Notes under the pieces: generated by a model
What the model was told of the DNA's origin: nothing
Database searches by the model: none
The model's input: only the letters and a program-made list of their open reading frames with translations
Shown here: one piece after another, positions 1,816 to 23,526 of the stretch
Layout of the letters: each line of letters opens with the position of its first letter
Numbering within the stretch: the first letter of the stretch is position 1
Translations under genes and position numbers: made by a program
Source of the DNA: Acidimicrobiales bacterium
GTDB lineage: Bacteria > Actinomycetota > Acidimicrobiia > Acidimicrobiales > RAAP-2
DNA: 47,097 nt
Direction: 5' to 3'
NCBI GenBank assembly: GCA_036796435.1
Contig: DAIRCY010000006.1
Coordinates: 3,604-50,700, forward strand

Positions 1816-2589
1816 TCAGCCGTCGATGGTGCGCATGGTGGCGGCGATCTCTTCCGCAGCTGCTTTCACCAGCCCCACGGTGTCGTCGAGGCGAGCGGCG
1901 TCGAGGCGATACTGGGGCGTCACGACGGAGAGCCCGGCGATCACGTGATCACGGCGTCCGAAGATCGGCGCGGCAATGCCGACTACCCCCTGGTCGCGCT
2001 CGCCGTAGGTGACTACGTATCCGTTCCGACGGATCTCGCCCAGGCAGGCTCGCAGTGCCCGCGGATCGGTGATCGTGTTGTCGGTGAATCGCTCGAGTGG
2101 TTCGGATCCGACCACGCGCTCGAGCTCGTCTTCATCGAGCCACGCCAAGGTCACGCGCGCAGAGGCGCCAGCGTGGACGGGTAGGACATGGCCTCGTTCG
2201 TAGGAGAGGCGAAGATTGCGCGAGCTCTCCTCGCGTTCCAGGCAGACCACCCGGTTCCCCGAGCGCCGCGTCAGCAGGACGGTCTCGCCGGTCGCGTCGA
2301 CCAGTCGCCGCATGACCGGTGCGGCCACCTCTGAGAGGCCCAGGCCTTGTCGGGCGATGCGGGCGAGCTGCAAGATGCGCGGACCGAGCCGGAACCCCGC
2401 GGGATCCTCCTCGAGGAGCCCGGCATCGCGCAGGCTCTGGAGGTAGCGGTACGTGGTGCTGCGCGACATCCCGAGCTTGCCCGCCACCTCGGACGCGGAT
2501 AGGACGGGCCGACCCCCGTCGTACAGGAGCAGCAGCTGGATCGTCCGGTCCGCCGTCACATTGCGCTGCGCCCTCGTGGGTGCGCTCAT
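1816..2589 (-). CDS. IclR-family transcriptional regulator
   Basis: ORF 1816..2670. wHTH segment LSASEVAGKLGMSRSTTYRYLQSLRDAGLL, followed by an IclR effector domain (...GVVGIAAPIF...). I prefer the internal ATG at 2589 (MSAPTRAQ...), which is preceded by AGGAGG. Confidence 0.9.
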   Translation of the reverse strand: MSAPTRAQRNVTADRTIQLLLLYDGGRPVLSASEVAGKLGMSRSTTYRYLQSLRDAGLLEEDPAGFRLGPRILQLARIARQGLGLSEVAAPVMRRLVDATGETVLLTRRSGNRVVCLEREESSRNLRLSYERGHVLPVHAGASARVTLAWLDEDELERVVGSEPLERFTDNTITDPRALRACLGEIRRNGYVVTYGERDQGVVGIAAPIFGRRDHVIAGLSVVTPQYRLDAARLDDTVGLVKAAAEEIAATMRTIDG

Positions 2590-2679
2590 CGGACGCCTCC
2601 TGGTCGGCTTCTTGTCACGATCGGCCGCTCGAGGGCCGTGCTCGTGCCGGCACGGGGGCCCCGCTGTCAACTCGCGAGA

Positions 2680-2699
2680 CCGTACTTCTCATAATACGG
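2680..2699. promoter_or_regulatory. Inverted repeat CCGTA-N10-TACGG around an AT-rich core (cttctcataa); possible IclR operator or -10 region
   Basis: Seen in the divergent region between the IclR gene and the GrdB-like gene. The minus strand reads TATTAT and the plus strand reads CATAAT inside the spacer. Confidence 0.3.
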
Positions 2700-2890
2700 G
2701 AATCATGGACCGGGCTCAGGACCTGCGTGCCACCGGTGAGGAGGGTGAGGGAGGGTCACCGCAACGTCCGGACTGCCGACCCGTTCGAGGAAGCCCGGCC
2801 CCAGCTCCACGAATCGGCAACCCGATCTGCGTCACGCGAACCCCACTCTCGGCGATGGCTCCCTCCCGCGTTGGGGCCGACCGCAGCCCC

Positions 2891-2919
2891 TTGACGCTTC
2901 ACTTCAGATCCCCTAATAT
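2891..2919 (+). promoter_or_regulatory. Near-consensus sigma70/sigA-type promoter: TTGACG, 17 nt spacer, TAATAT
   Basis: TTGACG at 2891-2896 and TAATAT at 2914-2919 with an exact 17-nt spacer. It lies about 125 nt upstream of the ATG at 3047. Confidence 0.45.
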
Positions 2920-3046
2920 GAGACGCAGTACCCGCATTTCGAGACAGTCCTGCTGGGCTGCGCTGTGAGCACACCACGTGAGCCAACTTCTCTTTTGACG
3001 TCGGCTCGGATCCCGCGATTGTGCTCGCTTGAAAGGACTTCACTGG

Positions 3047-3961
3047 ATGGTGTTTCGGTACACGGAGTGGATGCGGAGTTTGGCGGGCGAGGACCGGTAC
3101 CCGGGTTTACCGAATTTCGATCCTCCTGAGAGGGTCGTAACTCTGCGTAAACCCCTAAGAGAGTGCACCGTAGCTATCCTGACTAGTGCTGGCGTGCAGC
3201 CAACGACAGATGCGACCCAGTTCACGTCCCAGTTCGCCTACGATCCTCCGCAACACTTTGACCATTCGTACCGCTATATCCCTCGAGAGACCCCCCTCTC
3301 CGAGCTTGTCGTCAAACATACGTCCCCATCACGCGTCTGGGCCGAGCAGGACCTGAACGTCGTTTACCCCCGAGATCCGTTGGTGGAACTCGAAAGGCAA
3401 GGCGTTATCGGCAGGTTGGCTAAACGAGCAGTCTCATTTCTAGGAAATTCTTTTCAATTTAGCGACATGATAAGTCAAATTGTACCGAGCATCGTCCCGG
3501 GACTTCAGGAAGACGAAGTTGACCTCGCGTTGCTCATCCCCCTCTGACCAACCTGCCATCGGTCCGTGGGACTGATCGCGAGAGCAATAGAAGCTAGGGG
3601 GATCCCAACCGTCATGATGCACACGTTGCTCGAGATGGCTGAGGCCTTCAAGCCTCCGCGTCCCGTCTTCCTGGACTTTCCAATCGGGTGCTCAGCGGGT
3701 CGCCCTAATGACCTGGATTCCCAAGTAAGTGTGCTGCGAGCAGCGCTCGAATTCGCTCCGAAACTTGGAGTGCCTTGGAACGTCGGAAAGTTGCCATTCC
3801 AATGGTCAGCAGACGGAAGCCGGGACTGGGAGGAGCAGGTGCGCAAGCTATACATAGCTTCTGGCAGACCCGACCAGTTTCGGGATAAGAGCCCTGAGAG
3901 ATGGAGCGAAGGTAGCCTGCAGGGTAAAGAGCGGGAGTTTACGATTCGTTGTGCCTGCTAA
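3047..3961 (+). CDS. GrdB/PrdB-family (glycine/sarcosine/betaine/D-proline reductase protein B-like) protein with one in-frame TGA at 3545-3547. Candidate selenoprotein; alternatively a Cys-to-stop pseudogene.
   Basis: Track ORFs 3029..3547 and 3566..3961 are in the same frame, separated only by the TGA. The joined reading is ...VDLALLIPL-U-PTCHRSVGLIARAIEARGIPTVMMHT...PPRPVFLDFPIGCSAGRP.... That gives a U-x-x-C redox motif followed by the G.IAR.IE..GIPTV segment I associate with this family. The ATG at 3047 is preceded by GAAAGGA; TTG at 3029 is an alternative start. Confidence 0.7.
3554..3580 (+). promoter_or_regulatory. SECIS-like stem-loop immediately downstream of the in-frame UGA
   Basis: An 8-bp stem, 3558-3565 (AUCGGUCC) paired with 3569-3576 (GGACUGAU), including one G-U pair. 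The apical loop is GUG (3566-3568). A 3-bp lower extension (3554-3556 with 3578-3580) follows a 1x1 mismatch. The loop begins 18 nt after the UGA. Confidence 0.45.
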
Positions 3962-4249
3962 TGCGGTTTACACATCGACAGCTAGTATGCCGGGCCAGTC
4001 GACTCCGCCGCGGTTGGCTCTGGGACATCGGCGTCGCCAATACTCCCCGGGCTTCTTCAGTGATCTTCGTACGGGGCTTGTGGGTCCCAAGTAGCGAGTG
4101 ATCCGAGCTGTGGGACATAGGGTCCATCGGACCTGTGCAGGGGGGATCTCGGGCTCGCTTGGGCGCCGTGCGGCATGAGCGTGGATGTCAAGGTCGATCC
4201 CGGCTGTGCTCTCTTCCCCGCCTGCGTCTAGCGAGGGGAGGCGCGGACC

Positions 4250-5062
4250 GTGACCGAGCGGACTGGTCCTCTCCGGGAGCGCCGCTGGCGGGACCGAGCC
4301 TTTCGGTTGGGGAAGGGCCTCGTCGGCGTGGCGGGTGCCATTGGGATCTGGGAGCTGCTCGTGGTGAGCGGCGTCCTTCCCGAGAAGGCCGCACCGTCAT
4401 TTGGCTCGATCGTGGTGGCCGCGGTCACGGACCTGGGCAATGGCTCGCTCCTCGGGGCGGTCGGCGTCACGATGCTGGCCTGGGCCATCGGCCTCGCCAT
4501 CGCGACCGTGCTCGGCGTGATCCTGGGGGCGCTCATCGGCGTGTCGCAGTGGGTGGCGGGGGTCCTTCGCCTACTCGTGCGGTTCCTCCGTCCGGTGCCG
4601 TCGGTCGCGCTCATCCCGGTCGCCGTCTTGGTCGCGGGCCTCTCACTGAAGATGACGCTCATCCTGGTGGTCTTTGCCAGCGTGTGGCCGATCCTCTTCA
4701 ACACTGCCTACGGCATCCGAGAGGTCCCGCAGCTCTACAAGGACACCGGGAGAGCGATGGGCCTGTCCTCCGGCGGAGTGCTCACCCGGATCACCCTGCC
4801 CGCCGCGCTGCCGTCGGTCGCGACGGGCCTACGCGTCTCGGCTGCGATCGCCTTGGTGGTAGTCATCGCTGCCGAGCTCATCACCGGAAATGCCGGGATC
4901 GGGCGGTTCATACTCCAAGAGAGGCTCGGCGCGCAGTACTCCGACGCCTATGCCGCCGTGCTCGTCGGCGGACTGCTCGGCTATCTCATCAACGGCATCG
5001 CCACCGGCGCCGAGCGGCGCCTGTTGTTCTGGAGCGCCGAGTACCGGCAGGCGGCAGCGTGA
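4250..5062 (+). CDS. ABC transporter permease, NitT/TauT (SsuC/TauC-like) family
   Basis: ORF 4250..5062. Multi-TM protein with an EAA-type loop FNTAYGIREVPQLYKDTGRAMG. The GTG start is preceded by GAGGGGAGG. Confidence 0.9.
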   Translation: MTERTGPLRERRWRDRAFRLGKGLVGVAGAIGIWELLVVSGVLPEKAAPSFGSIVVAAVTDLGNGSLLGAVGVTMLAWAIGLAIATVLGVILGALIGVSQWVAGVLRLLVRFLRPVPSVALIPVAVLVAGLSLKMTLILVVFASVWPILFNTAYGIREVPQLYKDTGRAMGLSSGGVLTRITLPAALPSVATGLRVSAAIALVVVIAAELITGNAGIGRFILQERLGAQYSDAYAAVLVGGLLGYLINGIATGAERRLLFWSAEYRQAAA

Positions 5063-5958
5063 AGCCCCTCGATGGCCAGGCGAGCGGACGGACGGCCGAG
5101 GCGCCGGTATCGCGGCCGGGGGTTGCAGCCGGTGCAGCGCCCGCGCCGCGCGGACAGGCGCGCGGCGGACTCCCGAAGCGCCGGCTCTCGACGAGGCTCG
5201 GCCTTCGGTTGGTCGGCTGGCTCTCTTTCGCTGCGGCAGTAGGGCTCTGGCAGGCATGGGCATCAGCAGCGCACGTGCAGTCCGTCGCGACCTTCTCGAG
5301 CGCAATGAGAGCGCTCGGGACGGTGCTGACGGGCTCCGAGCTCCGCACGGACGTGCTCCCGTCCATCTACCAGGTGCTGATCGGCTTCGCGATCGCTTCC
5401 ATCGCCGGCGTTGTCCTCGGCCTCGTCATCGGGACGTTTCGCTTCCTCGATCCCTGGGTGCGCCCAGTCATCGAATTCATGCGCGCCGTCCCACCGCCGC
5501 TCATCATCCCGGTCGCCACGCTGATCATCGGCATCTCGGGGAACCTCGTGGTGGCCGTCATCGTGTTCGGCGCACTGTGGCCCGTGCTGCTCAACACGAC
5601 CGATGGGGCCCGACGCGTGGAGCCTGTCTACCTCGACACGGCGAAGGCGCTCCATATCCCGCCCTGGAAGGTCCTCGGCTCGATCATCCTCCCGGCCAGC
5701 TCCCCGATGATCATGGCTGGGCTCCGGGTCGCCCTGAGCACGTCCCTCATCATGATGGTCCTCGCCGAGATGCTGGCCTCGAGCAGTGGCATCGGTTACC
5801 TCATCCTCACTTCGCAGCAGACGTTCACAATTCCCGTCACCTACGGCGGTGTCGTGCTTCTGGGAATCATCGGGTGGCTCTTCGATGGGGTCTTCCTTTT
5901 GGTCGAGCATCGCGCGCTGCGCTGGAACAGCGACTATGCAGGGGGAACCGGTGTTTGA
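5059..5958 (+). CDS. Second ABC transporter permease, NitT/TauT family (paralog of the previous gene)
   Basis: This is the C-terminal 299 codons of ORF 4135..5958. Loop LLNTTDGARRVEPVYLDTAKALH. GTG at 5059 overlaps the upstream stop (GTGA). The exact start is uncertain because the N-terminus is long and low-complexity. Confidence 0.8.
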   Translation: MKPLDGQASGRTAEAPVSRPGVAAGAAPAPRGQARGGLPKRRLSTRLGLRLVGWLSFAAAVGLWQAWASAAHVQSVATFSSAMRALGTVLTGSELRTDVLPSIYQVLIGFAIASIAGVVLGLVIGTFRFLDPWVRPVIEFMRAVPPPLIIPVATLIIGISGNLVVAVIVFGALWPVLLNTTDGARRVEPVYLDTAKALHIPPWKVLGSIILPASSPMIMAGLRVALSTSLIMMVLAEMLASSSGIGYLILTSQQTFTIPVTYGGVVLLGIIGWLFDGVFLLVEHRALRWNSDYAGGTGV

Positions 5959-6754
5959 CGGAGCCACGCTCGAGTGCGACAAGGTCCAGAAGACCTTCTT
6001 GCTGAAGGACCGGACCCCGCGGCGGGTTATCGACGATCTGACCTTGCGCGTCGAAGCCGGCGAGTTCGCCGTCATCCTGGGACCGTCGGGGTGCGGGAAG
6101 ACCACGCTGTTGCGCATATTCAGCGGGCTCCTCCGTCCGGACGCGGGCGCCGTTTACGTACGTGGTGAGGAGGTCCGCAGCGTCCCGCGGGACGTCGCGG
6201 TCGTATTCCAGGAGTACAACAAGAGCCTCTTTCCGTGGCTGACGCTCGACCGGAACGTCCGCTTCGCGCTTCAGGGACTGCCGAAGGAGGTGGCGAAGGA
6301 GCGCGCGCGGAAGGCGCTCGCGCAGGTCGGACTGGCCGAGTCGGCGCATCAGTACCCCTGGCAGGTGTCCGGAGGGATGCAGCAGCGGACGGCCATCGCC
6401 AGGGCGCTCGCCTGCGAGGCCAAGCTCGTCATAATGGACGAGCCATTCGCATCGGTCGACGCGCTGACCCGGATCCAGCTCGAGCAGATGATGCTCGACA
6501 TCTGGAGCAGGGTCGGGTTCTCCGTCGTCTTCGTGACGCACGACATCGAGGAGGCGGTCTTCCTGGCCGACCGCATCTTCGTCCTCTCGGGTCGCCCGAC
6601 CTCTGTCAAGGAGGAGATCGTCGTGGACTTGCCGCGTCCGAGGGACCCGCTGGCCACCAAGGCGCTCCCGAAATTCCAGGAGCTGCGGGAAGAGGTGTTC
6701 AAGCTCATCGACAAAAGTCAGATGGAGGATAACCAGGACAGGCTGCTTGGGTGA
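5936..6754 (+). CDS. ABC transporter ATP-binding protein (NitT/TauT type)
   Basis: Internal ATG of ORF 5786..6754. Walker A GPSGCGKTT, signature VSGGMQQR, Walker B LVIMDEPF. Confidence 0.92.
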   Translation: MQGEPVFDGATLECDKVQKTFLLKDRTPRRVIDDLTLRVEAGEFAVILGPSGCGKTTLLRIFSGLLRPDAGAVYVRGEEVRSVPRDVAVVFQEYNKSLFPWLTLDRNVRFALQGLPKEVAKERARKALAQVGLAESAHQYPWQVSGGMQQRTAIARALACEAKLVIMDEPFASVDALTRIQLEQMMLDIWSRVGFSVVFVTHDIEEAVFLADRIFVLSGRPTSVKEEIVVDLPRPRDPLATKALPKFQELREEVFKLIDKSQMEDNQDRLLG

Positions 6755-6845
6755 GAAGGCTCGTGATCGAGACAGAAGACGTTGACCGATTGTCCGGCGT
6801 TGTACACCGGTACGGCTCCAAACGAGGAGAGGAGAAGGTGAACCT

Positions 6846-7847
6846 GTGATGAGGCACTACCGCTTGAGAATGGGACTCGTGGGATTGGCGGTGAGCGGAC
6901 TATCCCTCGCCACCGTAGGGAGCAGCCCGGCGTGGGCGTCGACCAAGAGCGCGAAGTCGACGGCGCGCACGACGACCAAGATAACGGTCGGGATTCTCCC
7001 GGTCGCAGATGCCGGCGGCTACTACACCGCCGTCAAGAGAGGGTTCTTCAAGAAGCGTCATCTCGACGTGGTTTCCGCCACAATCGCCGGTGGAGCCGCC
7101 CTTGTACCTGCGCTCGAGTCGGGTGCGATGCAGGTCGGCTTCTCCAACCTCGTGTCCGTCCTGGAATCAGGCGAGCACAACTTCGGAATGGAGTGCCTCG
7201 CCGGCACGTTGAAGAAGCCGCCAGTCGGACACAACTTGTCGATCGTCGTCTCCCCGAAGGACGCGTCGACAATCAAGAGCGCCAAGCAGCTCGACGGCAA
7301 AACGATTGCCGTCAACACCTTGGGCAATGTGCTCCAGCTTCTCGCCGAGAACTGGATCGCAACTCACGGAGGCACATACAAGTCGGTGCACTTCGTCGCC
7401 ATGACATTCCCGGACATGCCGGCTGCGATAGCCAAGGGAACCGTCGACGCCGCGGTCGTCGACGAGCCTTTCACCACAATCTCGATCCATGGTGGCGCGA
7501 AGATCCTTTCGGCCCGGCCATATCAGGTCATCACAAAGGAGCCCGTCTTCAGCTGCTGGCTCGCCAGCAAGAAGTGGGTGAACGCGCACAAGGCCGCGGC
7601 ACGTGCCTTTGTGGCAGCACTCAAGCAGTCCGACCGCTACATCGGCAAGCACCCAAATTACCTGCGGACCATCCTGCCTACATTCACCAAGATTCCGGCC
7701 GCATTGGCGAAGACCCTCACATTGCCGATCATCTCCACCCAGATCACAACGAAGATCTTGAAGAAGTGGGAGAGGGTTGCGCTGCATTTCGGAATGTTGA
7801 CGAAGAGGGTCAACGTGAACTCCCTTATCGCGCACCTCGGAAAGTGA
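6846..7847 (+). CDS. ABC transporter substrate-binding protein, NMT1/THI5 (SsuA/TauA-like) fold, secreted
   Basis: ORF 6846..7847. Signal peptide ...LVGLAVSGLSLATVGSSPAWAS. GGAGAGGAGAAGG lies upstream. Start is GTG 6846 or ATG 6849. G+C is visibly lower than in the neighbours. Confidence 0.8.
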   Translation: MMRHYRLRMGLVGLAVSGLSLATVGSSPAWASTKSAKSTARTTTKITVGILPVADAGGYYTAVKRGFFKKRHLDVVSATIAGGAALVPALESGAMQVGFSNLVSVLESGEHNFGMECLAGTLKKPPVGHNLSIVVSPKDASTIKSAKQLDGKTIAVNTLGNVLQLLAENWIATHGGTYKSVHFVAMTFPDMPAAIAKGTVDAAVVDEPFTTISIHGGAKILSARPYQVITKEPVFSCWLASKKWVNAHKAAARAFVAALKQSDRYIGKHPNYLRTILPTFTKIPAALAKTLTLPIISTQITTKILKKWERVALHFGMLTKRVNVNSLIAHLGK

Positions 7848-7852
7848 GCACG

Positions 7853-8863
7853 ATGAAAGTCATCGATTTCCACATCCACTACGCGCCGGAGGACATGGTC
7901 CGTCCCAATCTCGGTGAAGGCGGCAGTCCGAAGGTGTCGTGGAAGGACGGGGTCCCGCGCTACACGCAGCACGAGGGCCTCTATCGCATCGACCGGCACC
8001 TCGAGTGCATGGACGCTGCGGGCATCGACGTCGGCGTCCTGTCGAGTGGTGCTGCAATGGGAGCCGACCACGACTCGTGCGCGCACGTTAACGAGGACCT
8101 CGCCAGGGTGGAGAAGGAGAATCCCGGGCGCTTCCGCCCCCTATGCCACATCGACCCGCGTGACGACCGGTGGCGACGGGAATTGCAGATGTGCGCCGAG
8201 GAACACGGCTTCCCGGGGATCGCCTTCCCGAGCAGCTTCGGCACGGTGCAGCTGGACGACCCCGTGGTCTTCCCCGTGTACGAGGAGGCGGTGCGCCGAG
8301 GAATGTTCGTCTTCGTACACCCGTCCCTCCCGTGCCCGCCCGGGCTCGAGAGCTACTACGACCGCTACGACCTCTATCGATGCGTGGGTCGCGAGCACGA
8401 GCTCGTGCTCGCGACGTTCCGGCTCGTCGCGGGCAGGATCTTCGATCGCGTGCCCGGGCTGCAGGTCGTGATGTCGCACCTGGGAGGCGGGATCGCGGCA
8501 TTCATCGAGCGGATCCGCGGATACCAGGACAAGGGCCACCTCGGGATCACGGCCGACTCGCCGCACGGCCAGGTAGCGGACAATGCGTTCGACCACTACT
8601 TCGACCACAACATGTTCTTCGACACGGGTGGGGTGTTCGGGAGTATCAACGCAATCCGCGCCGCGCTCACCGAGATCCGGCCCGAGCGCATCGTCTTCGG
8701 CACTGACTACCCTCAGGAGATCCGGGACGCCGAAAAGATGGCGAAGTTCACCCGGGACCTTCGCGCCTCGGGCCTGTCCGGCGACGTCATCGAAGGCATT
8801 CTCGGTGGCAACGGCGCGCATCTGATCTCCGAGGACGCCGCGACGAGGAGCGCGTCGGCGTGA
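7853..8863 (+). CDS. Amidohydrolase_2 family metal-dependent hydrolase/decarboxylase (ACMSD/LigW-like)
   Basis: Internal ATG of ORF 6932..8863. MKVIDFHIHYAPE (HxH motif) ... VFVHP ... IVFGTDYP. Confidence 0.8.
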   Translation: MKVIDFHIHYAPEDMVRPNLGEGGSPKVSWKDGVPRYTQHEGLYRIDRHLECMDAAGIDVGVLSSGAAMGADHDSCAHVNEDLARVEKENPGRFRPLCHIDPRDDRWRRELQMCAEEHGFPGIAFPSSFGTVQLDDPVVFPVYEEAVRRGMFVFVHPSLPCPPGLESYYDRYDLYRCVGREHELVLATFRLVAGRIFDRVPGLQVVMSHLGGGIAAFIERIRGYQDKGHLGITADSPHGQVADNAFDHYFDHNMFFDTGGVFGSINAIRAALTEIRPERIVFGTDYPQEIRDAEKMAKFTRDLRASGLSGDVIEGILGGNGAHLISEDAATRSASA

Positions 8864-8954
8864 GCCACTGTGGGAGGGCACGGGGGATCGCGCATGGACG
8901 GATACTTGTGAGGTGGGGCGTCGCCTGCGCCCAGACGGCACGAGGAGGGTCACG

Positions 8955-9680
8955 ATGGCCATGACTTCGCCCTGGGACTCGATCCCCGACTACGACGTGC
9001 AGCGGCTCGGTCCCGAGATCCTGGACCGCCGCGAGCAGGAGCGGTGGTGCCGGGCCGTGTTCATGGCAGGCAGCCTGCCGTTCATGTGGCGAGAGTCGTC
9101 GGTAGTGCGCGAGCTCGTGTACGACCGCCTGGAGCTCGCTCCGGGACATTCAGTCCTCGTGATCGGAGAGGGTGTCGAGGCCTGCGGGTTCGGCAGCGAC
9201 CTTCGGGCGACGGTGGGGAGAGACGGCGTCCACGTCGTCGACATCATCGACGAGGCGCGCGACCGCTACCTGGCTGGCAAGAGAGGGTCGGGAGGCCAGC
9301 TGGCGACCTGGCACTACGACTTCGCCGACCAGTTCGACGACGGCATGTTCGACGCGGTTGCGGTCCTGCAGGGCGTCCAGCACGCCGAGGACTGGGCGGT
9401 GACCGGCAGGGACCTCGCGCGGGTGCTGAAGCCCGGCCGTCCCCTCGTCCTCGCGGAGATCGCCTTCGGGCCCCGTTTCTTGGTCAGAGCGCAAGCCGAC
9501 GTCCACCTGTACTTCCTGATTCGCAAGCTGTTCGATCGGATCGGCTGGGACCTCCACGACTTTCCGTACCACGGCCTGGAAGAGCTCCGGACGGCATTCG
9601 AGGGCACCCTTGTCGACGTAGGGACATTCGAGTGGCGCGGGATCGAGGTGCTCTGGGGGCGCACGCCCGCGTCGCCTTGA
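8955..9680 (+). CDS. Class I methyltransferase-fold protein (function unclear)
   Basis: ORF 8913..9680. I prefer ATG 8955, which follows GGAGGG. Motif-I-like VLVIGEGVEACG. A later LKPGRPLVLAE segment also fits. No stronger signature was recognised. Confidence 0.55.
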   Translation: MAMTSPWDSIPDYDVQRLGPEILDRREQERWCRAVFMAGSLPFMWRESSVVRELVYDRLELAPGHSVLVIGEGVEACGFGSDLRATVGRDGVHVVDIIDEARDRYLAGKRGSGGQLATWHYDFADQFDDGMFDAVAVLQGVQHAEDWAVTGRDLARVLKPGRPLVLAEIAFGPRFLVRAQADVHLYFLIRKLFDRIGWDLHDFPYHGLEELRTAFEGTLVDVGTFEWRGIEVLWGRTPASP

Positions 9681-9693
9681 AGCGTGAGTCGAA

Positions 9694-10337: not shown

Positions 10338-10341
10338 CGAG

Positions 10342-15721: not shown

Positions 15722-15726
15722 CGCTC

Positions 15727-16635
15727 CTACCGCTCCTCGCGAGCGTCGGACATGGTGCCGCTCGCGGCGAGCAGCTCGCTCGTCTCGAGGAGCCGTTTCG
15801 CCCGCAGGACGATCGGCAGGTCCACGAGCTGCCCGCCCACCGCGACCGAACCTTCGCCCCGGGCCTGGGCGTCCTCGAACGCCGCGACGACCTTCTTCGC
15901 GTAATCGATCTCATCAGGGGAGGGGCTGAAGACGCGGTTGATGTCATCGAGCTGACGTGGATTGAAGGTCGACTTCCCGGTGAACCCCAATCGACGAGCC
16001 TGGAGGATGTCGGACGCGAGCCCGTCAGGATCGTCCAGGTCGGGAAAGACACCGTCGATGCTTCCCACTCGCGCCGACGCGGCGGCGATCACGATGCAGG
16101 ACCTCGCATGGATGAGCTCGCGCGCTTCCCCTGCGCGTTGCGTGCCGAGGCCGAGGTCGAGGGCGTAGTCCTCGGCACCGAACATCAGCGCTTCCACCCG
16201 CGGATGGCTACCGGCGATTGCGGGCGCGTGCAGGACTCCGCGGGCGCTCTCGATCGCGACCACAATGCGGACGGTGCCCGGCGCCATCGACCGCTGCCGC
16301 TCGAGGTCGTCGAGGCGGCTCGCAAGGCCGGTCACGTCTGTCACCGACTCTGCTTTCGGAAGGCAGACCCCCTCGAGCCCGGGAACGACGACGGCGTCGA
16401 GATCGTCGGCGAACCAGGGTGAAGGGGTCGAGTTCAAGCGCACGAAGCGCCGCGGTCCGAACTCGGATCGACCCAAGGCCCGTGCGACCGACTGCCGCGC
16501 CGCCGCCTTCTCGGCAACCGGAACCCCGTCTTCGAGATCCAAGAAGACGGTGTCGGCAGGAACACCGGCCGCCTTTGCAACGAATCGTTCGGTATGTCCG
16601 GGAACGAACATCCACGAACGCCCGAGATAACTCAT
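15727..16635 (-). CDS. HpcH/HpaI aldolase / citrate-lyase beta (CitE-like) acyl-CoA lyase
   Basis: Internal ATG of ORF 15727..17166, preceded by AAAGGAGGA. MSYLGRSWMFVPGH..., FLDLEDGV, MFGAEDY. Confidence 0.85.
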   Translation of the reverse strand: MSYLGRSWMFVPGHTERFVAKAAGVPADTVFLDLEDGVPVAEKAAARQSVARALGRSEFGPRRFVRLNSTPSPWFADDLDAVVVPGLEGVCLPKAESVTDVTGLASRLDDLERQRSMAPGTVRIVVAIESARGVLHAPAIAGSHPRVEALMFGAEDYALDLGLGTQRAGEARELIHARSCIVIAAASARVGSIDGVFPDLDDPDGLASDILQARRLGFTGKSTFNPRQLDDINRVFSPSPDEIDYAKKVVAAFEDAQARGEGSVAVGGQLVDLPIVLRAKRLLETSELLAASGTMSDAREER

Positions 16636-16744: not shown

Positions 16745-17944
16745 TCACGCCACCACCCCCTGGGCGCGAAGACCGTCGATCTCCTCGGATTCGTATCCGA
16801 CGGAACGCAGGACGTCGTCGGTGTCCTGGCCGAGGTCCGGGAGACGTCGCTCGACCGATGGCGCGCCGAGCGGGAAGCGCACGACGGGCAGGGTGCCGAC
16901 CGGTGACGCTGCCTCGACGAACATCTGACGAGCAAGGAGCTGAGGGTGCTCGAGGACCTTCTCGATCGTGCGGACCTCGCCGTATGGGAGCCCAACACTG
17001 GCCAGCCGGTCGAGCCAGACCTTGCTCGGCAGCGCAACGATCCTCCGCTCGACGAGCGCATCCAGCTCGTCCCGGTGTCTCCGCCGGGCGTCGATGGTGG
17101 CGAAACGAGGGTCGTCCACGAGCTCGGGCCCGTCGAGGACCTGTTCACACAGGCGCACCCAGTCATGCTCGTTGGCGACGACCAGGTTGACGTAGACGCC
17201 GTCTCGGGCGAGGTACGGGCCGTAGGGGGACAGGTACTGGTGTCGCATGCCCGTGCGTGGCGGCTCTTCTCCTTCGTGCCAGTAGTGGTGCGGGAAGTAG
17301 CTCAGCCACGGGGCGACCGCGTCGAGCATCGCGACGTCGAGGTAGGCACCGGTGCCGCTGGCCGACCGTGCCACGAGGGCGCTCAGCACTGCGATCGCCG
17401 CCGTCGAGCCGCCGATGAGGTCGGTGATGGGGAGGCCCACCTTGGCGGGAGCGTCAGGGGTGCCATTGGACAAGAGGACGCCCGACTCGCCCTGGATGAG
17501 CAGGTCGTAGGCCTTCACATCCCGATACGGTCCCGTCTGGCCGTATCCCGAGAGGCTGCAGTAGACGAGCGCGGGGTTCTCTCCCCGCAGGTCTGCATCG
17601 GACAGCCCGAGGCGCGCCACTACCCCAGGGCTGAAGTTCTCGAGGAAGGCATCCGCGCTGCGGACGAGGCGCCGGACCACGGCTCGCCCCTGCTCGCTGC
17701 CAAGGTCGACAGCCACGTCTCGCTTCCCCACGTTGAAAGCGACGAAGCCGCTCGAGAGCCCTCTGGCGACGTGGTCCCAGCCGCGCACGACGTCCCCACC
17801 CCCGGGTCGCTCGATCTTGATCACCTCGGCGCCGAGCTCCGCGAGGATGAACGAGCAGAAGGGCATCGCGACCGCCTGCTCGAGCGCGACGATTCTCGTC
17901 CCCTTCAGCGGGCGGCTTTGCGTGTCTGCATCTACCTCGGTCAC
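16745..17944 (-). CDS. Class III (CaiB/BaiF-family) CoA-transferase
   Basis: In-frame part of ORF 16745..18274. The GTG start overlaps the MaoC stop (GTGA). ...LKGTRIVALEQAVAMPFCSFILAELGAEVIKIERPGGGD.... Confidence 0.88.
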   Translation of the reverse strand: MTEVDADTQSRPLKGTRIVALEQAVAMPFCSFILAELGAEVIKIERPGGGDVVRGWDHVARGLSSGFVAFNVGKRDVAVDLGSEQGRAVVRRLVRSADAFLENFSPGVVARLGLSDADLRGENPALVYCSLSGYGQTGPYRDVKAYDLLIQGESGVLLSNGTPDAPAKVGLPITDLIGGSTAAIAVLSALVARSASGTGAYLDVAMLDAVAPWLSYFPHHYWHEGEEPPRTGMRHQYLSPYGPYLARDGVYVNLVVANEHDWVRLCEQVLDGPELVDDPRFATIDARRRHRDELDALVERRIVALPSKVWLDRLASVGLPYGEVRTIEKVLEHPQLLARQMFVEAASPVGTLPVVRFPLGAPSVERRLPDLGQDTDDVLRSVGYESEEIDGLRAQGVVA

Positions 17945-18450
17945 GGTCCGGTCGCCACCGTCGGGAAGATCTCCGTCCTCGGCGCGTGCTCCCGCTTCCA
18001 CACCATCACCGATCGCCGGTAGCGGATCACGAGCTCGCCGTCCTGGTTGTAGCCACGGGTCTCCACCTTGACGACGCCCTGCGTCGGTCGCGACCGGGAC
18101 GGTCGCACTTCGAGGACCTCGCTCTCCGAGTACAAGGTGTCGCCGGCAAAGACCGGATGTGGCAGCTGGATCTCGTCCCAGCCGAGCGCAAACCCGTTCT
18201 CGCTCACGTCTGCGACGCCCATGCCTGCGACGATGGAGAGCGTGAGAGCACTGTTCACCAGGCAGCGGCCCCACTCGGTGCGCTTGCCGTACTCACGGTT
18301 GAAGTGGATCTGATTGGTGTTGTTGGTGAGAAGGGTGAACGTGATGTTGTCGGACTCGGTGACCGTGCGGCCGTAACGACAACGATAGATGTCGCCGACG
18401 GCGAAGTCCTCGAGGTAGCGACCCTCCCATCCGGCTCGTACCGTTCCCAT
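17941..18450 (-). CDS. MaoC-like (hot-dog fold) enoyl-CoA hydratase/dehydratase
   Basis: ORF 17941..18450. ...FTLLTNNTNQIHFN... is a hydratase-type motif. GAGGAGGAAGG lies upstream. Confidence 0.85.
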   Translation of the reverse strand: MGTVRAGWEGRYLEDFAVGDIYRCRYGRTVTESDNITFTLLTNNTNQIHFNREYGKRTEWGRCLVNSALTLSIVAGMGVADVSENGFALGWDEIQLPHPVFAGDTLYSESEVLEVRPSRSRPTQGVVKVETRGYNQDGELVIRYRRSVMVWKREHAPRTEIFPTVATGP

Positions 18451-18489: not shown

Positions 18490-19650
18490 TTAGTAAGACT
18501 TGGGCATTCCAAGTACCCGTTGGCCGAGATAGGACAGGACGAGGTTGTTGCTGACGGGCGCGATCTCGAAGAGCTTGGTCTCACGGAACTTCCGCTCGAT
18601 GGCGTACTCGGAAGCGAAGCCGTTGCCTCCGTATGCCGTGATCGCTGCATTGGCCGCTTGCCACGACGCCGAGGAAGCCAGGTACTTCGCCATGTTCGCT
18701 TCGGCACCACAGGGCGCGCCCCCATCGAAGAGCGTCGACGCGTGAAAGCGCATCAAGCTTGCTGCGCGCACGGCCGCGTACGCCTGCGCGATAGGGAACT
18801 GGACTCCCTGGTTCGCGCCGATCGGCTTGCCGAAGACGACGCGAGACGACGCATACTGTGCAGCACGCTCGACAAAGAATCGGCCGTCACCGATTGCTTC
18901 CGACGCGACCAGGATGCGCTCGGCGTTCCATCCGTCGATGATGTAGCGGAACCCCTTGCCTTCCTCGCCGATCAGGTTCTCTGCGGGGACCTCCAGGTCG
19001 GTCAGAAAGACCTGGTAGGTGTGATGGTTGAACATGACCGGGATACGCGAGATCTCGACTGCATCCCCGGCTGTGCGCAGGTCCACCAAGAGGAGAGACA
19101 GCCCCTCGGTCGTGGGCTGACCCTCGGTGAGCGGCGAGGTACGAACGAGAAGCAGCATGAGGTCGGAGTACGCAACGCGCGAGATGAACGTCTTCTGTCC
19201 GTTGACCACGTAGTGGTCGCCGTTCCTTACCGCTCTCGTCGTGATCTGGGTGGTGTCGCTCCCCGCGTCCGGCTCGGTGACGCCGAAGGCTTGAAGGCGC
19301 AGCTCCCCCGCGGCGATCGCCGGGAGGTATGCCTGCTTCTGCTCGGCGCTCCCGTGCCGAAGGACCGTGCCCATCGTGTACATCTGGGCATGGCACGCGT
19401 TGGCATTGGCACCCGATCGGTGGATCTCCTCCAAGACGATTGCGGCCTCGGTAATTCCGAGCCCGCCGCCGCCGAGGTCCTCGGGTATGAGGATCGACAG
19501 CCACCCGAGCTCGGTGAGGGTCCTCACGAAGGCCTCGGGGTAGGCCCCCGTCGCTTCGAGATCCTGCCAATAGCTGTCGGGGAACTTGGCGCACACGTCC
19601 GCGATTGCATCGGCGATCGTCTGCTGGTCCCCGCTCAGTCGGAAGTCCAT
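18490..19650 (-). CDS. Acyl-CoA dehydrogenase
   Basis: ORF 18490..19650. ACAD architecture with ...YASSRVVFGKPIGANQGVQFPIA... and ...AYGGNGFASEY.... Confidence 0.92.
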   Translation of the reverse strand: MDFRLSGDQQTIADAIADVCAKFPDSYWQDLEATGAYPEAFVRTLTELGWLSILIPEDLGGGGLGITEAAIVLEEIHRSGANANACHAQMYTMGTVLRHGSAEQKQAYLPAIAAGELRLQAFGVTEPDAGSDTTQITTRAVRNGDHYVVNGQKTFISRVAYSDLMLLLVRTSPLTEGQPTTEGLSLLLVDLRTAGDAVEISRIPVMFNHHTYQVFLTDLEVPAENLIGEEGKGFRYIIDGWNAERILVASEAIGDGRFFVERAAQYASSRVVFGKPIGANQGVQFPIAQAYAAVRAASLMRFHASTLFDGGAPCGAEANMAKYLASSASWQAANAAITAYGGNGFASEYAIERKFRETKLFEIAPVSNNLVLSYLGQRVLGMPKSY

Positions 19651-19661
19651 TCCTGGCGTTC

Positions 19662-20702
19662 CTAGGCCGCCGAAGGGGCGGCGGAGAAGTGCCCCGTCCG
19701 GACGAAGTCAGCGTTGGTCAGGTAGTGGTGCAGCTCTCCCGCGAGGTCCTCGGTGTTGGGCACGTATGCCACCACGCAGCGGGTGGAGCCGGCTGCTTCA
19801 TAGCCGGCGAGCTTCGACGGCAGCTTTGCGAGATCACGATCGGCATACATCGGCACGTCATCCACCATCTCGTCGGGGATGAGCTTCCTGGCGGCGGTGA
19901 AGCCGTCGCGGCGATGAGCCTCTTGGACCGCGGTGACGACATCTCCCCATCCCATGGTGGTGAGCGTGTCGCTGTAGCCGCGTTGGAGCGAGTAGAAGGT
20001 CAACACCTTCTTCAAAGCCCAGCGGGCGGCGTCGACGTCGTCGGACAAAGAGACCCGGACCTTGGAGACGACTTGCAGCCCACTCGGGTCGCGCCCGGCC
20101 TCTCGCGCACCACTTTGGAAGTCCTCGACGATGCGCCGGATCATCGGAGGGTTGGCCATGTTGACGACGATCCCGTCGCCGATGCGGCCTGCGAGTCGAG
20201 CCATCTGCGGCCCGAGGCCCGCGATCCAGACTCGCAGGTCGCCCTCGGGGGGCCTGAAGGCCATCTTGAAGGATCCTCGCGTCGCATAGAAGTCGCCCTC
20301 GTAGTCAGGTACGCGTTCGCCCGAGTACGCGGCCCGCAGGATCTCGACGTACTCTTTCATGCGCCGCAGTGGCCGGTCGAACGTCTGGCCATGCCAGCCG
20401 GCGATGATGGGATTGCCCACGCCGAGCCCGAGGATCAACCGTCCTTGCGAGAGCTCGTTGAACGCCGCTGCTTGCAGCGCGAGGGTGATGGGAGATCGGC
20501 CGTAGACGTGGTAAATGGCCGTGCCGAGCTCGATGTTCGACGTCGTCGCCGCCATCGCGGAGAGCAGCACCATGGGGTCTCGCGAATTGGACTCCCCCTT
20601 CCAGACCGCGCCGAAACCGACCTCCTCTGCCAACTTTGCCGCGTCGACACAGACGTTCATCGGGATCTGTGCAGCGGAATTGAACTCCGTGTCGATGATC
20701 AC
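19662..20702 (-). CDS. Luciferase-like monooxygenase (LLM) class flavin- or F420-dependent oxidoreductase
   Basis: ORF 19662..20702. ...AEEVGFGAVWKGES..., ...LGLGVGN.... It has the length and pattern of an LLM TIM-barrel. Confidence 0.8.
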   Translation of the reverse strand: MIIDTEFNSAAQIPMNVCVDAAKLAEEVGFGAVWKGESNSRDPMVLLSAMAATTSNIELGTAIYHVYGRSPITLALQAAAFNELSQGRLILGLGVGNPIIAGWHGQTFDRPLRRMKEYVEILRAAYSGERVPDYEGDFYATRGSFKMAFRPPEGDLRVWIAGLGPQMARLAGRIGDGIVVNMANPPMIRRIVEDFQSGAREAGRDPSGLQVVSKVRVSLSDDVDAARWALKKVLTFYSLQRGYSDTLTTMGWGDVVTAVQEAHRRDGFTAARKLIPDEMVDDVPMYADRDLAKLPSKLAGYEAAGSTRCVVAYVPNTEDLAGELHHYLTNADFVRTGHFSAAPSAA

Positions 20703-20762: not shown

Positions 20763-21533
20763 TCAGCTCGTGTACCAGTTGTTCGGATCGAGCTCGTTGC
20801 GAATGAGGGCGAGCTGCGTCGCCGTGGGCGCAGGCGTCTCCTTCGGGCCGCCCGCGGGAACGTGCAGCGGAATGGGGGTGGCGGCGAGAACTGTCTCGGG
20901 CTGCTCGCCGGGATGGACGCTTTCGAGCACTGCACCGGCGTCGGTAAGTGCGATCACTGCTCGATCGGTGACCACCGCGCATGGACCTTCGCTGGGAAGA
21001 CCCACCGTTGCGCGCGTCTGGTCCCTGATCCGACGTCCCGGACTCGTGAGGAATGTGAGGGCCTCGGAGAACTTTCGCGACTGATGGGTCATGATCACGA
21101 CAGTTCGACCGGCATTCGAGCTGATGTCGTTGCTGCCGCCCGATCCCCGGAAGCGCCGCCGCGAACCGTCTGGCGCTTCCACCTCGGTCGTGTTCAGCGA
21201 CCCCCACTGGTCCACTTGGAGCGCCCCGAGGAGCCCGAGCGAGACCCGGCCACCGTGCACCATGACCCCGAGCACCTCCAGCGTCGAAGCGAAGGCGGTG
21301 GCGTCCTTCCACAGTCGTGGATCCGCGATACCCATTGCCGGTTCGGCGGGCACCGGCTCGAAGACCCCGCTCTCGAGGAGCAGGCTCACCGTGGGGGCGT
21401 GCGTCCGCTGCGCGAGCAGGGCGGCGATCTGTGGCAGTCCTAGCCCGACGACGGTGACATCCCCGTCGACGACTTGGAGCGATCCTGCGACCGCCAGCAT
21501 CTCTGCGCGGGTCCACTTCTCCTCGTCGCTCAT
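20763..21533 (-). CDS. Class I CoA-transferase beta subunit (glutaconate / 3-oxoacid CoA-transferase B-like)
   Basis: ORF 20763..21533. ...WTRAEMLAVAGSLQVVDGDVTVVGLGLPQIA..., ...GSGGSNDI.... Confidence 0.82.
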   Translation of the reverse strand: MSDEEKWTRAEMLAVAGSLQVVDGDVTVVGLGLPQIAALLAQRTHAPTVSLLLESGVFEPVPAEPAMGIADPRLWKDATAFASTLEVLGVMVHGGRVSLGLLGALQVDQWGSLNTTEVEAPDGSRRRFRGSGGSNDISSNAGRTVVIMTHQSRKFSEALTFLTSPGRRIRDQTRATVGLPSEGPCAVVTDRAVIALTDAGAVLESVHPGEQPETVLAATPIPLHVPAGGPKETPAPTATQLALIRNELDPNNWYTS

Positions 21534-22396
21534 GCCGCCACCTTCTCGAGGTACTCGTCGAACGTGGACACGCCGCGGACGAAGCGGTCGAGATAGGCGT
21601 CGAGCGCGTCGCCCCCGGCGTTCGAGGCGGCGGCGTACTGGCGGAGGTGCGCGGCGTCGTAGTCGTAGTGGCCGTAGACGGCGGTCGGATGGCCGCCCCG
21701 GGGCACGCGCGCCACGGCATGGACCAAGAGGCCCGGGATCGTGATGCGCGATGGGTCGAGCTCACCCACCTCGACGATCTCTTCTGCGACGAGGTCCACC
21801 ATCCTCGAGGCACGGGCCGTCTCGGGGATGCTCCATACCGGTCCACCCACGATCGCATTGCCGGCGCGGTCTGCCACGTCGACGTGGACTACCGCGATAT
21901 CCGGATGCAGCGGAGGGAGGGCCAGACACGGGGCGCCGTCGAAAGGACTCTCGATCGCGGCGGCCTGCCCGGTCGCTACCAATGGCGCGACGAGGTCGGA
22001 GCCGAGCATGGACCGGGTCGTGACGAAGGGGAGCCCGAGGGCACCGGCATGGAGCCGGAGGGCGAGGGCGAGCCCTGAGTACTCGGAGAGGGCCAGGCTC
22101 CCATCCAGCATCGCCCGGTTCACCGCATAGAGAAGACCGAATCGGTCGATCGATCCGCTGGCATAGGTGAGACAGTCCATGGCGCCGGCTGCCGCCAATA
22201 GATCGGTCTCGAACCCGCCGAACACCTGGGTGACGGTGAGGCCACGCGTCCCCGCACGGATGAGCTCATGGGCGAACGCCACCGCGTTCCGGGTGATGGC
22301 AAAGCCCGCAAGCGCCAGGTGACTGCCGTCGGGGATGTCGGAGACGATCTCTTGCAGCGACACCACCCGGTCGGGGTGCGCGGCGGTCGCCGTCAT
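21530..22396 (-). CDS. Class I CoA-transferase alpha subunit (GctA-like)
   Basis: Internal ATG of ORF 21530..22972 (MTATAAHPDRVVSLQEIVSDIPDGSHLALAGF...). Its stop overlaps the beta-subunit start (ATGA). Confidence 0.82.
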   Translation of the reverse strand: MTATAAHPDRVVSLQEIVSDIPDGSHLALAGFAITRNAVAFAHELIRAGTRGLTVTQVFGGFETDLLAAAGAMDCLTYASGSIDRFGLLYAVNRAMLDGSLALSEYSGLALALRLHAGALGLPFVTTRSMLGSDLVAPLVATGQAAAIESPFDGAPCLALPPLHPDIAVVHVDVADRAGNAIVGGPVWSIPETARASRMVDLVAEEIVEVGELDPSRITIPGLLVHAVARVPRGGHPTAVYGHYDYDAAHLRQYAAASNAGGDALDAYLDRFVRGVSTFDEYLEKVAA

Positions 22397-23430
22397 CAGT
22401 CGCCCATCAGCTCGAGCCCGAGCAGCCGCGCCGGGTTGTCGCGCAAGATGGTCTTGATGTCGCGCTCGGCGATGCCGAAGCCGAGGAGTGCCCGGGTGAA
22501 GACGCGCATGCCCGAGACGCTGTCGAGGTTGAGCACCTGTCCGAAGTCGGAGCCGCTCACGCAGTGCGAGGCGCCGACTTGATTGATGGCGTCGACGGTC
22601 TCCATTGGGTCCTGCACTGGCTGGTAGAGCGACGGGATCATCGGCTGGCAGTAGACGCCAACGTAGGTGCCCAGCGCGGCGAGCTGCTTCATCTCGTCGA
22701 CGAGCAGCTTGTTGAGCTCGAGCAGCGGGTGGTCGAGGACCGTGCGTAGGCCGAGCTCCTTCGCGAGGGTGCAGAGCGGGAGGAGCTCCTCGAAGTCCGT
22801 GTGCCCGAGTGCGACGGCGACACCGGCCTCCGCCGCGAGCTCCATGACCCTGCGTACGTTCGGGAGGACGTCGCCAGACGGTCCGACCAGGCGTACGTAC
22901 TCTTCGGGGTCGGGATTCAGTCCCGCGGAGCGCGCCCAGCCGAACGACTTGAACGTGGGGAACCAGATGCACTTGAAGTTCGGGTACTTGAGCGCGATCT
23001 CGACCGCCTCGGGGTTTACCCCCAGGTTCAGGCCGAGTCCCCCGTAGACCTCCACTCGATGCGTCAGCCGACCGTCGAGCACCATCTCGTCGACCTGCTT
23101 CTGCACGAGGTACGCCGCACCTGCCGTGATGTTCCAGTGATCTTTGAACGCAATGGCGCGCATCTTCGCCCGGGACGCGTCCACTGCGATCTCGACCATG
23201 TCCTGGGAGCGATGGACGAAGTCGGGATAGGCGTGGATGTGATGGTCGATGGCGCCTTCCAAAAGAGGGTCCTCGATGCCCGGATGCACCGCCGTGAGCT
23301 GGGGATTGTCCTTCAGCATCTCGTAGAAGTACGTCGGCGAGTTCAGCTGGCGGACCCGCTCGACCGTGAGGGTGCGACCCACCCGCGTCTCGCCCTTGAC
23401 CGCCTCGTAGACGCCGTGTTCATCGCACAT
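22396..23430 (-). CDS. Uncharacterised amidohydrolase-fold metal-dependent hydrolase (HxH motif)
   Basis: ORF 22396..23430. ...GAIDHHIHAYPDF..., ...VALGHTDF..., ...SGSDFGQ.... It is the first gene of the minus-strand operon, and its stop shares one nt with the next start. Confidence 0.65.
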   Translation of the reverse strand: MCDEHGVYEAVKGETRVGRTLTVERVRQLNSPTYFYEMLKDNPQLTAVHPGIEDPLLEGAIDHHIHAYPDFVHRSQDMVEIAVDASRAKMRAIAFKDHWNITAGAAYLVQKQVDEMVLDGRLTHRVEVYGGLGLNLGVNPEAVEIALKYPNFKCIWFPTFKSFGWARSAGLNPDPEEYVRLVGPSGDVLPNVRRVMELAAEAGVAVALGHTDFEELLPLCTLAKELGLRTVLDHPLLELNKLLVDEMKQLAALGTYVGVYCQPMIPSLYQPVQDPMETVDAINQVGASHCVSGSDFGQVLNLDSVSGMRVFTRALLGFGIAERDIKTILRDNPARLLGLELMGD

Positions 23431-23460
23431 GGTGCGGGCCTCGCTTCCTCGTCTGACGTC

Positions 23461-23477
23461 GTCCCGTCATACGGGAC
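23461..23477. promoter_or_regulatory. Perfect 17-bp palindrome GTCCCGT-CAT-ACGGGAC, 31-47 nt upstream of the operon's first start codon (candidate operator or 5'-UTR hairpin)
   Basis: Read directly. It lies between the putative -10 hexamer and the RBS (GAGGAAGCGAGG) of the gene starting at 23430. Confidence 0.4.
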
Positions 23478-23496
23478 CGTCGTTGCTTATCTCGAG

Positions 23497-23526
23497 ACTG
23501 TAAGTTGTGGACGGGGCGACCGTCAA
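23497..23526 (-). promoter_or_regulatory. Putative promoter of the 10-gene minus-strand operon: TTGACG, 18 nt spacer, TACAGT
   Basis: Minus-strand TTGACG is at 23526-23521 and TACAGT at 23502-23497. Confidence 0.4.

Follow-up and report, generated by a model that had tools for sequence, protein, structure and literature searches.

A two-operon catabolic island in an Acidimicrobiales genome as a layered patchwork around a conserved DUF6282-to-CitE core

Two converging operons in the genome of an Acidimicrobiales bacterium bring together an ABC importer, decarboxylase-like enzymes, CoA-transferases, an acyl-CoA lyase, and several redox proteins, which raises the question of whether such a combination serves a single catabolic pathway. 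The analyzed stretch (below, the window) comprises 47,097 nucleotides, positions 3604-50700 of contig C6 of a metagenome-assembled genome (MAG; 2.56 Mb in 139 contigs, 84% complete, 70.8% GC); labels starting with C, G, and L denote contigs of this genome, genomes of relatives, and extracted loci, respectively. The initial annotation described the region as one catabolic island of about 21 kb with no match among textbook pathways. Pfam, NCBIfam, and PDB searches of the window proteins recovered all 22 island genes (Table 1), each in the family first given to it. The analysis confirms a two-operon breakdown island with linked parts, which is a layered patchwork and not a monolithic unit. The linkage is seen in gene neighborhoods, in presence/absence patterns, and in shared palindromes, whereas the whole is not inherited as one unit, the conserved core being limited to eight genes.

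The explanation that we favor, with moderate confidence, is a predicted catabolic supra-operon under the control of an IclR-family regulator and built from three layers. The first layer would be a conserved core formed by the DUF6282, GctA, GctB, LLM, acyl-CoA dehydrogenase (ACAD), MaoC, CaiB, and CitE genes. The second would consist of two enzymes of the non-oxidative decarboxylase type (LigW-like Amidohydro_2 and PhtD-like) and of the methyltransferase-fold and CMD/AhpD proteins, which together probably trim more carboxylated precursors, likely aromatic or heteroaromatic ones. The third would include a NitT/TauT-type importer that replaces the Liv-type importer of the relatives, together with a PrdB-like predicted selenoprotein, a dedicated electron-transfer flavoprotein (ETF), a CrtI-like flavoprotein, and an SDR oxidoreductase; these additions would provide reductive or redox capacity.

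The core genes recur together, usually accompanied by an iclR gene. They are found at 77-96% protein identity in three genomes of the same genus (G010, G011, and G012), as well as in a Natronosporangium MAG (L116), a JGI metagenome contig (L117), and an Acidobacteria MAG (L118), and they are carried by all eight metagenome loci of at least 9.8 kb with DUF6282 at least 68% identical. The gene order varies among the four genus genomes that have the core. A deeper clade, with DUF6282 at 62-65% identity, keeps only the genes for CoA-transferase subunits A and B, LLM, and DUF6282, as a four-gene operon amid housekeeping genes; LLM-GctB-GctA-DUF6282 is the most deeply conserved sub-module. The phyletic distribution of DUF6282 is narrow among reference genomes, where it is rare: of 16 other genomes in the genus, 3 have it, and a sample of 400 genomes from the phylum contained no instance. 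In soil metagenomes it is common, one scan having yielded 173 relatives.

The DUF6282 protein scores 148.9 bits with PF19799 (Pfam gathering threshold 26.8). Its homologs are 62-92% identical across phyla, and about 100 positions are invariant among 40 of them, including the D-x-H-x-H motif, H98, H210, D233/H234, and D295. The AlphaFold model (pLDDT 87.8) is an amidohydrolase barrel, whose nearest structures are PTE-like lactonases and renal dipeptidases with TM-scores of about 0.45-0.55. A literature search found no mention of DUF6282.

The neighboring class I CoA-transferase pair is of the Gct type, with two subunits and the catalytic glutamate of the beta subunit. GctB matches 1poi_B with 119 bits (E 3e-33), and its LLLESG segment aligns with IIVESG, so that the catalytic Glu54 is retained; GctA matches 1poi_A with 103 bits and both GctA and AibA with 103-108 bits. 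The two-subunit class I fold is common to the window pair, to GctAB (1poi), and to AibA/AibB (5mzw; PMC7756340), although unlike GctAB the window pair does not come from a fermentative hydroxyglutarate pathway. In the 3-methylglutaconyl-CoA decarboxylase AibA/AibB, the catalytic glutamate is replaced by Cys56B (PMC7756340). An AibAB-type decarboxylase was ruled out for the window pair because its B subunit retains the glutamate; this subunit gives only 35-36 bits with AibB.

Among the remaining core proteins, the closest relatives of CaiB are YfdE, formyl-CoA transferases, and succinate-hydroxymethylglutarate CoA-transferase, and its closest NCBIfam family is succinate-glutarate CoA-transferase. 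ACAD is best matched by AcrC and second best by the non-decarboxylating glutaryl-CoA dehydrogenase. MaoC is nearest to RipB/Ich (182 bits; cut-off 340 for NF038241), and CitE is nearest to CitE and RipC/Ccl (157.5 bits; cut-off 375 for NF038242), so that both remain at about half of the itaconate equivalog cut-offs. For LLM, the nearest structures are all F420 enzymes (Mer, Fgd, and Adf), the best subfamily is TIGR04024 (194 bits vs. a cut-off of 345), and the genome encodes CofD (317 bits vs. a cut-off of 257).

From these family similarities we infer a tentative order of reactions. An F420-type redox step by LLM and a metal-dependent ring hydrolysis by DUF6282, acting on a lactone, a lactam, or a similar structure, would convert the imported compound into a dicarboxylate resembling glutaconate or glutarate. 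The Gct-type and CaiB/SUGCT-type CoA-transferases would then form the thioester, ACAD would desaturate it, and the R-specific MaoC would hydrate the product. Finally, the CitE-type lyase would cleave the 3-hydroxyacyl-CoA to acetyl-CoA and a 2-oxo or 3-oxo acid. Three independent matches among these similarities therefore suggest a diacid skeleton of the glutarate, glutaconate, or hydroxymethylglutaryl (HMG) kind. Our best guess for the substrate is a carboxylated cyclic compound, whose ring would be hydrolyzed to give a diacid similar to glutaconate or HMG, which in turn would be cleaved to acetyl-CoA. The betaine-like substrate considered initially received no specific support: the CaiB protein scores 158 vs. 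413 required for the carnitine equivalog, and FixC and FixX are absent.

The lower half of this scheme has known relatives. Pseudomonas breaks down itaconate with Ict, Ich, and Ccl together with an ACAD, and in Mycobacterium tuberculosis Rv2498c is adjacent to Rv2499c-Rv2504c. Both systems (the first of which also includes RipABC) likewise combine a CoA-transferase, an R-specific MaoC, and a CitE/HpcH-type lyase; genes for an ACAD and a class I CoA-transferase pair lie close by. They share with the island the logic by which a 3-hydroxy-3-substituted acyl-CoA is made and acetyl-CoA is split off. The CitE step would parallel Ich/Ccl in itaconate breakdown and Rv2499c/Rv2498c in R-specific HMG-CoA breakdown. 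The Rv2498c-centered itaconate/leucine route was described by PMC6689899. Unlike these systems, the island contains DUF6282, a Gct-type transferase, and LLM, has no carboxylase, and scores at about half of the cut-offs. The claim that the island lacks a textbook counterpart goes too far. The literature search found no described pathway with its gene composition, and no described counterpart was found for the DUF6282-Gct-LLM upper half, but the lower half agrees with a type of pathway already known, with ACAD, MaoC, CaiB, and CitE paralogous to the itaconate and Rv2498c-Rv2504c modules. A further set of paralogs is located on contig C15 (23235-27416), with MaoC (41%), ACAD (31%), and CitE (32%), and may be a housekeeping itaconate/leucine-type module.

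An analogy to the proposed order of chemistry is provided by other ring-opening routes. The lower pathway of protocatechuate 4,5-cleavage employs the dehydrogenase LigC, the amidohydrolase-fold lactonase LigI, the hydratase LigJ, and the aldolase LigK. Both this route and the enamidase route of nicotinate fermentation involve ring redox, ring opening by an amidohydrolase, hydration, and cleavage by a C-C lyase, as proposed here. In contrast to them, the later steps in the island would proceed on CoA thioesters and the redox step would be of the F420-type LLM kind, and the island has no Lig or Nic orthologue.

The second layer is tied to the core through CitE and PhtD. The Amidohydro_2 protein is closest to the 5-carboxyvanillate decarboxylase LigW (E 9e-19, 71 bits), and the PhtD-like protein matches the 4,5-dihydroxyphthalate decarboxylase 9jp7 with 281 bits; homology to PhtD and to the LigW/gamma-resorcylate decarboxylases (4icm and 3s4t) is clear at the sequence level. 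In MAGs of the same genus, the triad of Amidohydro_2, methyltransferase-like, and CMD genes is present at 82-86% identity and converges on CitE-PhtD as in the window; there, a Liv-type ABC system precedes it, and the space between the triad and CitE-PhtD is free of Etf, CrtI-like, and SDR genes. In these MAGs, CitE-PhtD can also form a two-gene unit beside unrelated formate-dehydrogenase and mycofactocin genes. In G011, CitE and IclR-DUF6282 diverge at the end of a contig, and PhtD is the first gene of another. Orthologs of the PhtD-like protein (79-81%) occur only in G010, G011, and G012. Among the 16 genus genomes, exactly these three also have DUF6282, and the other 13 lack both; this co-occurrence suggests module linkage. 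The whole decarboxylase module (Amidohydro_2, methyltransferase, CMD, and PhtD) is common only to these three relatives. Beside the DUF6282 cluster of L117 (100-4683) lies a methyltransferase-like homolog 51% identical to the protein encoded at 8955-9680 of the window, in the company of a polysaccharide deacetylase-family gene and a split PEP-utilizing pair (PPDK_N and PEP-utilizers). A phthalate pathway, as the PhtD similarity might suggest, differs from the island: no phthalate dioxygenase, dihydrodiol dehydrogenase, or ring-cleavage dioxygenase was found in the window, and the scanned genes include no oxygenase or dihydrodiol dehydrogenase partner.

The importer and the redox genes belong to the third layer, which, among the genomes and loci examined, was observed only in this strain, with the exception of the NitT/TauT genes. 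In the Natronosporangium MAG, orthologs of the latter (55-73%) form part of the core cluster. The PDB search with the binding protein gave only an uncharacterized protein and SsuA, both of them weak matches.

PrdB/GrdB relatives reductively cleave C-N bonds. In the window, the PrdB-like frame is broken by one TGA, and read-through gives LIPL-U-PTCHR; the TGA is interpreted as a selenocysteine codon in a UPTCHR motif, which makes the product a predicted selenoprotein. In full-length homologs, the position of the TGA is aligned with the nearly invariant cysteine of the CPxCH[RQ] motif, and the close full-length homologs retrieved all carry cysteine, while paralogs in other genomes of the order have a TGA at the same site, in PV-U-P[VL]C. 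Up to five such paralogs occur in each of several genomes of the order (G057, G058, G059, G047, G033, and others; L002, L004, and L008-L011), most of them with the in-frame TGA; the genes look like an expanded selenoprotein family of the lineage. The selB, selD, and selA genes form a block on contig C43 at about 12300-16600 (L013 and L015), where an 822-aa frame combines SelB beta-barrel and SelD AIRS domains, representing either a fusion or an unresolved gene boundary. The selenocysteine tRNA was not found in the 84%-complete MAG. A hairpin, a candidate selenocysteine insertion sequence, is present downstream of the TGA (3558-3576), but its folding energy does not stand out, the z-score being only -0.47, like that of shuffled sequences. 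Single in-frame TGAs are also present in GH3 paralogs (C35:2728-3918 of this genome and G016:C98) and in CrtI-like paralogs (G015 and G001), where selenocysteine codons, frameshifts, and alignment run-through are all possible.

The two halves of the PrdB-like protein match TIGR04483 positions 16-144 and 157-236 with 65.7 and 35.6 bits vs. a cut-off of 300. The protein shares with the PrdB/GrdB family (pfam07355) the UxxC motif and the C-terminal PrdB/GrdB domain. It falls below the equivalog score of a protein B of this type and, unlike the known systems, has no PrdA, GrdE, or GrdA partner among the island genes and stands beside an ABC importer in an aerobic-type actinobacterial genome. 'PrdB' UxxC selenoproteins have been reported as a family abundant in ocean metagenomes whose role is not known (PMC2398784). 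The gene is compositionally foreign, with 55.8% GC and a third-position GC content (GC3) of 0.61 vs. about 0.85 in neighboring genes, and the island as a whole has 62-70% GC in 2-kb windows vs. 70.8% genome-wide. No ortholog was found in 60 relatives (best match 39%), and none in the genus. In L029, a PhtD-like gene (50%) is immediately followed by a cysteine-form gene of the PrdB-like kind (50%). Another cysteine-form homolog (45%; L030, 5996-10882) is preceded by genes for MTHFR, DUF5981, a PurU-like formyl-tetrahydrofolate (THF) deformylase, and GCV_T, with a second GCV_T gene nearby; this arrangement is reminiscent of the THF-dependent O-demethylase systems that act on methoxylated aromatics.

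The CrtI-like gene has no ortholog in the genus (best match 31%), and none of the relatives' loci examined contains the EtfBA or SDR genes. A distinct and more remote EtfA homolog (39% identity) is encoded on contig C54 of the same genome. Within the island, the CMD and EtfB genes are separated by 4 nt, and the Etf genes and the CrtI-like gene are joined by 4-nt overlaps. The closest CrtI-like homolog on a long contig (62%; L119, 8459-15858) is preceded by genes for an ETF_alpha fragment of 86 aa and a radical-SAM-like protein and is followed by a class II aldolase gene and an NMT1-type ABC system; the comparison of CrtI-like neighborhoods comprises this one context.

Regulation provides a further link between the operons. 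The window IclR is the ortholog, at 78% identity, of the IclR encoded directly beside the DUF6282 operon in relatives of the same genus (tblastn; L115, L120, L121, and L122). In each of the same-genus loci, 10-19 kb long, the pattern GTCCYRTAWWAYRGGAC with at most two mismatches has exactly two matches. One precedes DUF6282 by about 70-85 nt, and the other precedes iclR by about 100-125 nt, a distance similar to that in the window. When the pattern was relaxed slightly, the window gave 8 strand-matches vs. 1.56 expected, and none of 100 shuffles reached 8. Three of the four window sites are located in the two promoter regions, and the fourth lies inside the PrdB-like gene. These predicted operators support, but do not prove, control of both operons by a common IclR.

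Several points weigh against the proposed supra-operon. No plus-strand enzyme gene was detected in any of the 25 metagenome DUF6282 loci of at least 12 kb, and the PrdB-like, Etf, CrtI-like, and SDR genes are present in none of these 25. Homologs of the PrdB-like protein (42-50%) occupy unrelated contexts, namely a THF-demethylase cluster, an aromatic-catabolism cluster, and an OsmC/cytochrome oxidase region, and because of this the PrdB-like seed fails to define the island. The 62% CrtI-like homolog likewise sits in a different cluster, without shared pathway genes. The matching phyletic patterns of PhtD and DUF6282 may simply mirror one sub-clade of the genus. Both left-hand palindromes (2686-2702 and 2908-2924) have three mismatches each, and the search pattern was partly shaped on the right-hand site of the window itself. 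Finally, the fold matches of DUF6282 are weak and lead only to generic amidohydrolase barrels, and the equivalog scores are all far below curated cut-offs, so that specific substrates cannot be transferred.

Some of these points would be natural for an accidental mosaic, in which the DUF6282-to-CitE operon constitutes one pathway and the plus-strand genes (those for the PrdB-like and Etf/CrtI-like proteins, perhaps also the decarboxylase triad) are unrelated and were brought beside a tRNA-Leu hotspot by rearrangement or lateral transfer. The foreign composition of the PrdB-like gene, the lack of genus orthologs for it and for the CrtI-like gene, whose nearest homologs belong to other neighborhoods, the differing gene order in the four genus genomes with the core, and the failure of all 25 metagenome loci to join both gene sets are in line with such a history. 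We regard it as possible though doubtful, given that operator-like sites precede both operons, that the orthologous ABC genes lie inside the L116 core cluster, that CitE accompanies PhtD and the decarboxylase triad in relatives, and that PhtD and DUF6282 share one phyletic pattern in the genus; the 4-nt junctions from CMD through EtfB and EtfA to the CrtI-like gene weigh against it as well.

Two known pathway types could be proposed in place of the layered supra-operon. A degradation cluster for itaconate, mesaconate, or methylsuccinate (or for leucine/HMG-CoA in the R-specific form), carrying some decorations, is improbable: the four genes on which it would rely come with DUF6282, GctAB, and LLM in every case, although none of these three is required in the known pathways, the second MaoC/ACAD/CitE cluster on C15 could fill such roles, and the RipB/Ich and RipC/Ccl matches, which together with the mirroring of the Pseudomonas set and of the Rv2498c-centered route speak in its favor, reach about half of the required scores. 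Very improbable is a carnitine/betaine-type (cai/fix-like) reductive pathway with CaiB and ACAD acting on betainyl-CoA, electron input from ETF and the CrtI-like protein, and C-N cleavage by the PrdB-like protein. The ETF genes do face the ACAD and CaiB genes, the binding protein is of the NitT/TauT type, and the C-N chemistry is that of PrdB/GrdB relatives; against this, not only CaiB but also CaiA is far below its equivalog (181 vs. 540), the FixA and FixB matches are weak, the island genes scanned include no FixC/FixX, CaiC/CaiD, or PrdA/GrdE pyruvoyl partner, and no other copy of the core is accompanied by Etf, CrtI-like, or PrdB-like genes.

The coordinates of the island and of its left flank are collected in Table 1. 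ORF coordinates together with a start-codon scan reproduced all six overlapping junctions of the initial annotation: GTGA at 5059, ATGA at 11163, GTGA at 12191, the overlaps at 17941-17944 and 21530-21533, and 1 nt at 22396.

Table 1. Features of the island and its left flank (window coordinates)
Feature	Coordinates	Strand	Remarks
FhaA gene	400-1068	-	Pfam FhaA_N and FHA; conserved; left flank beyond tRNA-Leu
tRNA-Leu(CAG)	1364-1449	+	ARAGORN, Rfam; left edge of variable region
IclR-family regulator	1816-2589	-	Pfam IclR_C and HTH_IclR
Operator-like palindrome TTCTCATAATACGGGAA	2686-2702	.	97-113 nt upstream of iclR start
Sigma-70-like promoter TTGACG-17-TAATAT	2891-2919	+	sole match in 2500-14200
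Operator-like palindrome ATCCCCTAATATGAGAC	2908-2924		overlaps -10 of sigma-70-like promoter match
PrdB/GrdB-like protein	3047-3961	+	in-frame TGA 3545-3547
NitT/TauT-type ABC genes (two permeases, one ATPase)	4250-5062, 5059-5958, 5951-6754	+	
NMT1 binding protein of NitT/TauT-type importer	6849-7847	+	
Amidohydro_2 (LigW/gamma-resorcylate decarboxylase-like)	7853-8863	+	best PDB match 4icm
Methyltransferase-fold protein	8955-9680	+	weak fold match
CMD/AhpD protein	9777-10337	+	CPYC
EtfB	10342-11166	+	
EtfA	11163-12194	+	
CrtI/CrtO-like FAD oxidoreductase	12191-13852	+	
SDR oxidoreductase	13941-14705	-	last gene of minus-strand operon
PhtD-like protein	14726-15721	-	PDB 9jp7, E 8e-83
CitE-type acyl-CoA lyase	15727-16635	-	
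CaiB class III CoA-transferase	16745-17944	-	
MaoC R-hydratase	17941-18450	-	
ACAD	18490-19650	-	
LLM (F420-type) oxidoreductase	19662-20702	-	
CoA-transferase B (GctB-type)	20763-21533	-	
CoA-transferase A (GctA-type)	21530-22396	-	
DUF6282 amidohydrolase-fold 'HxH' hydrolase	22396-23430	-	
Operator-like palindrome GTCCCGTATGACGGGAC	23461-23477	.	31-47 nt upstream of DUF6282 start codon

The right flank is composed of unrelated genes, among them those for a GH3 glycosidase, an ABC1 kinase, and an M1 peptidase. Farther along the window, a second LLM gene (38011-39015, minus strand) overlaps an Amidohydro_1/3 gene (39012-40799, minus strand) by 4 nt, near an arginase-family gene (41408-42385, minus strand) and a gene for a cytosine/purine/allantoin-type permease (43351-44853, minus strand); this pair is possibly for an N-heterocycle or a guanidino compound. 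At the left edge, 15 nt of the tRNA-Leu 3' end (ccccctcgcccaccc) at 1436-1450 are repeated 50 nt downstream, at 1486-1500. A mobile island integrated at this tRNA was ruled out: there is no integrase among the scanned window genes, and a direct-repeat scan of 1300-27000 found no distal att repeat; the 3' end of the tRNA does not recur near the right-hand boundary. Comparison with an empty site was uninformative, as close orthologs of the right-flank GH3 gene are themselves lacking in the genus (48% or less).

On the three-layer explanation, a more specific idea can be put forward, which as it stands we consider unlikely. The DUF6282-Gct-LLM trio could represent an undescribed, oxygenase-free opening of a cyclic, possibly (hetero)aromatic-derived carboxylate by a redox step and amidohydrolase hydrolysis, with a glutaconate-type diacid passed to a CoA-dependent lyase module. 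Such a route would be widespread in soil Actinomycetota and Acidobacteriota. In this strain, two decarboxylases would add to it, along with a selenoprotein reductase supplied by a dedicated ETF and a CrtI-like flavoprotein.

In summary, the window gathers in one place the partners of DUF6282, a probable regulator with its operator, a candidate importer, and trimming enzymes, which makes the function directly testable. If the oxygenase-free ring opening is true, it would be a new funnel in the carbon turnover of soil bacteria, and the island would provide the first physiological setting for a non-clostridial PrdB-like selenoprotein.

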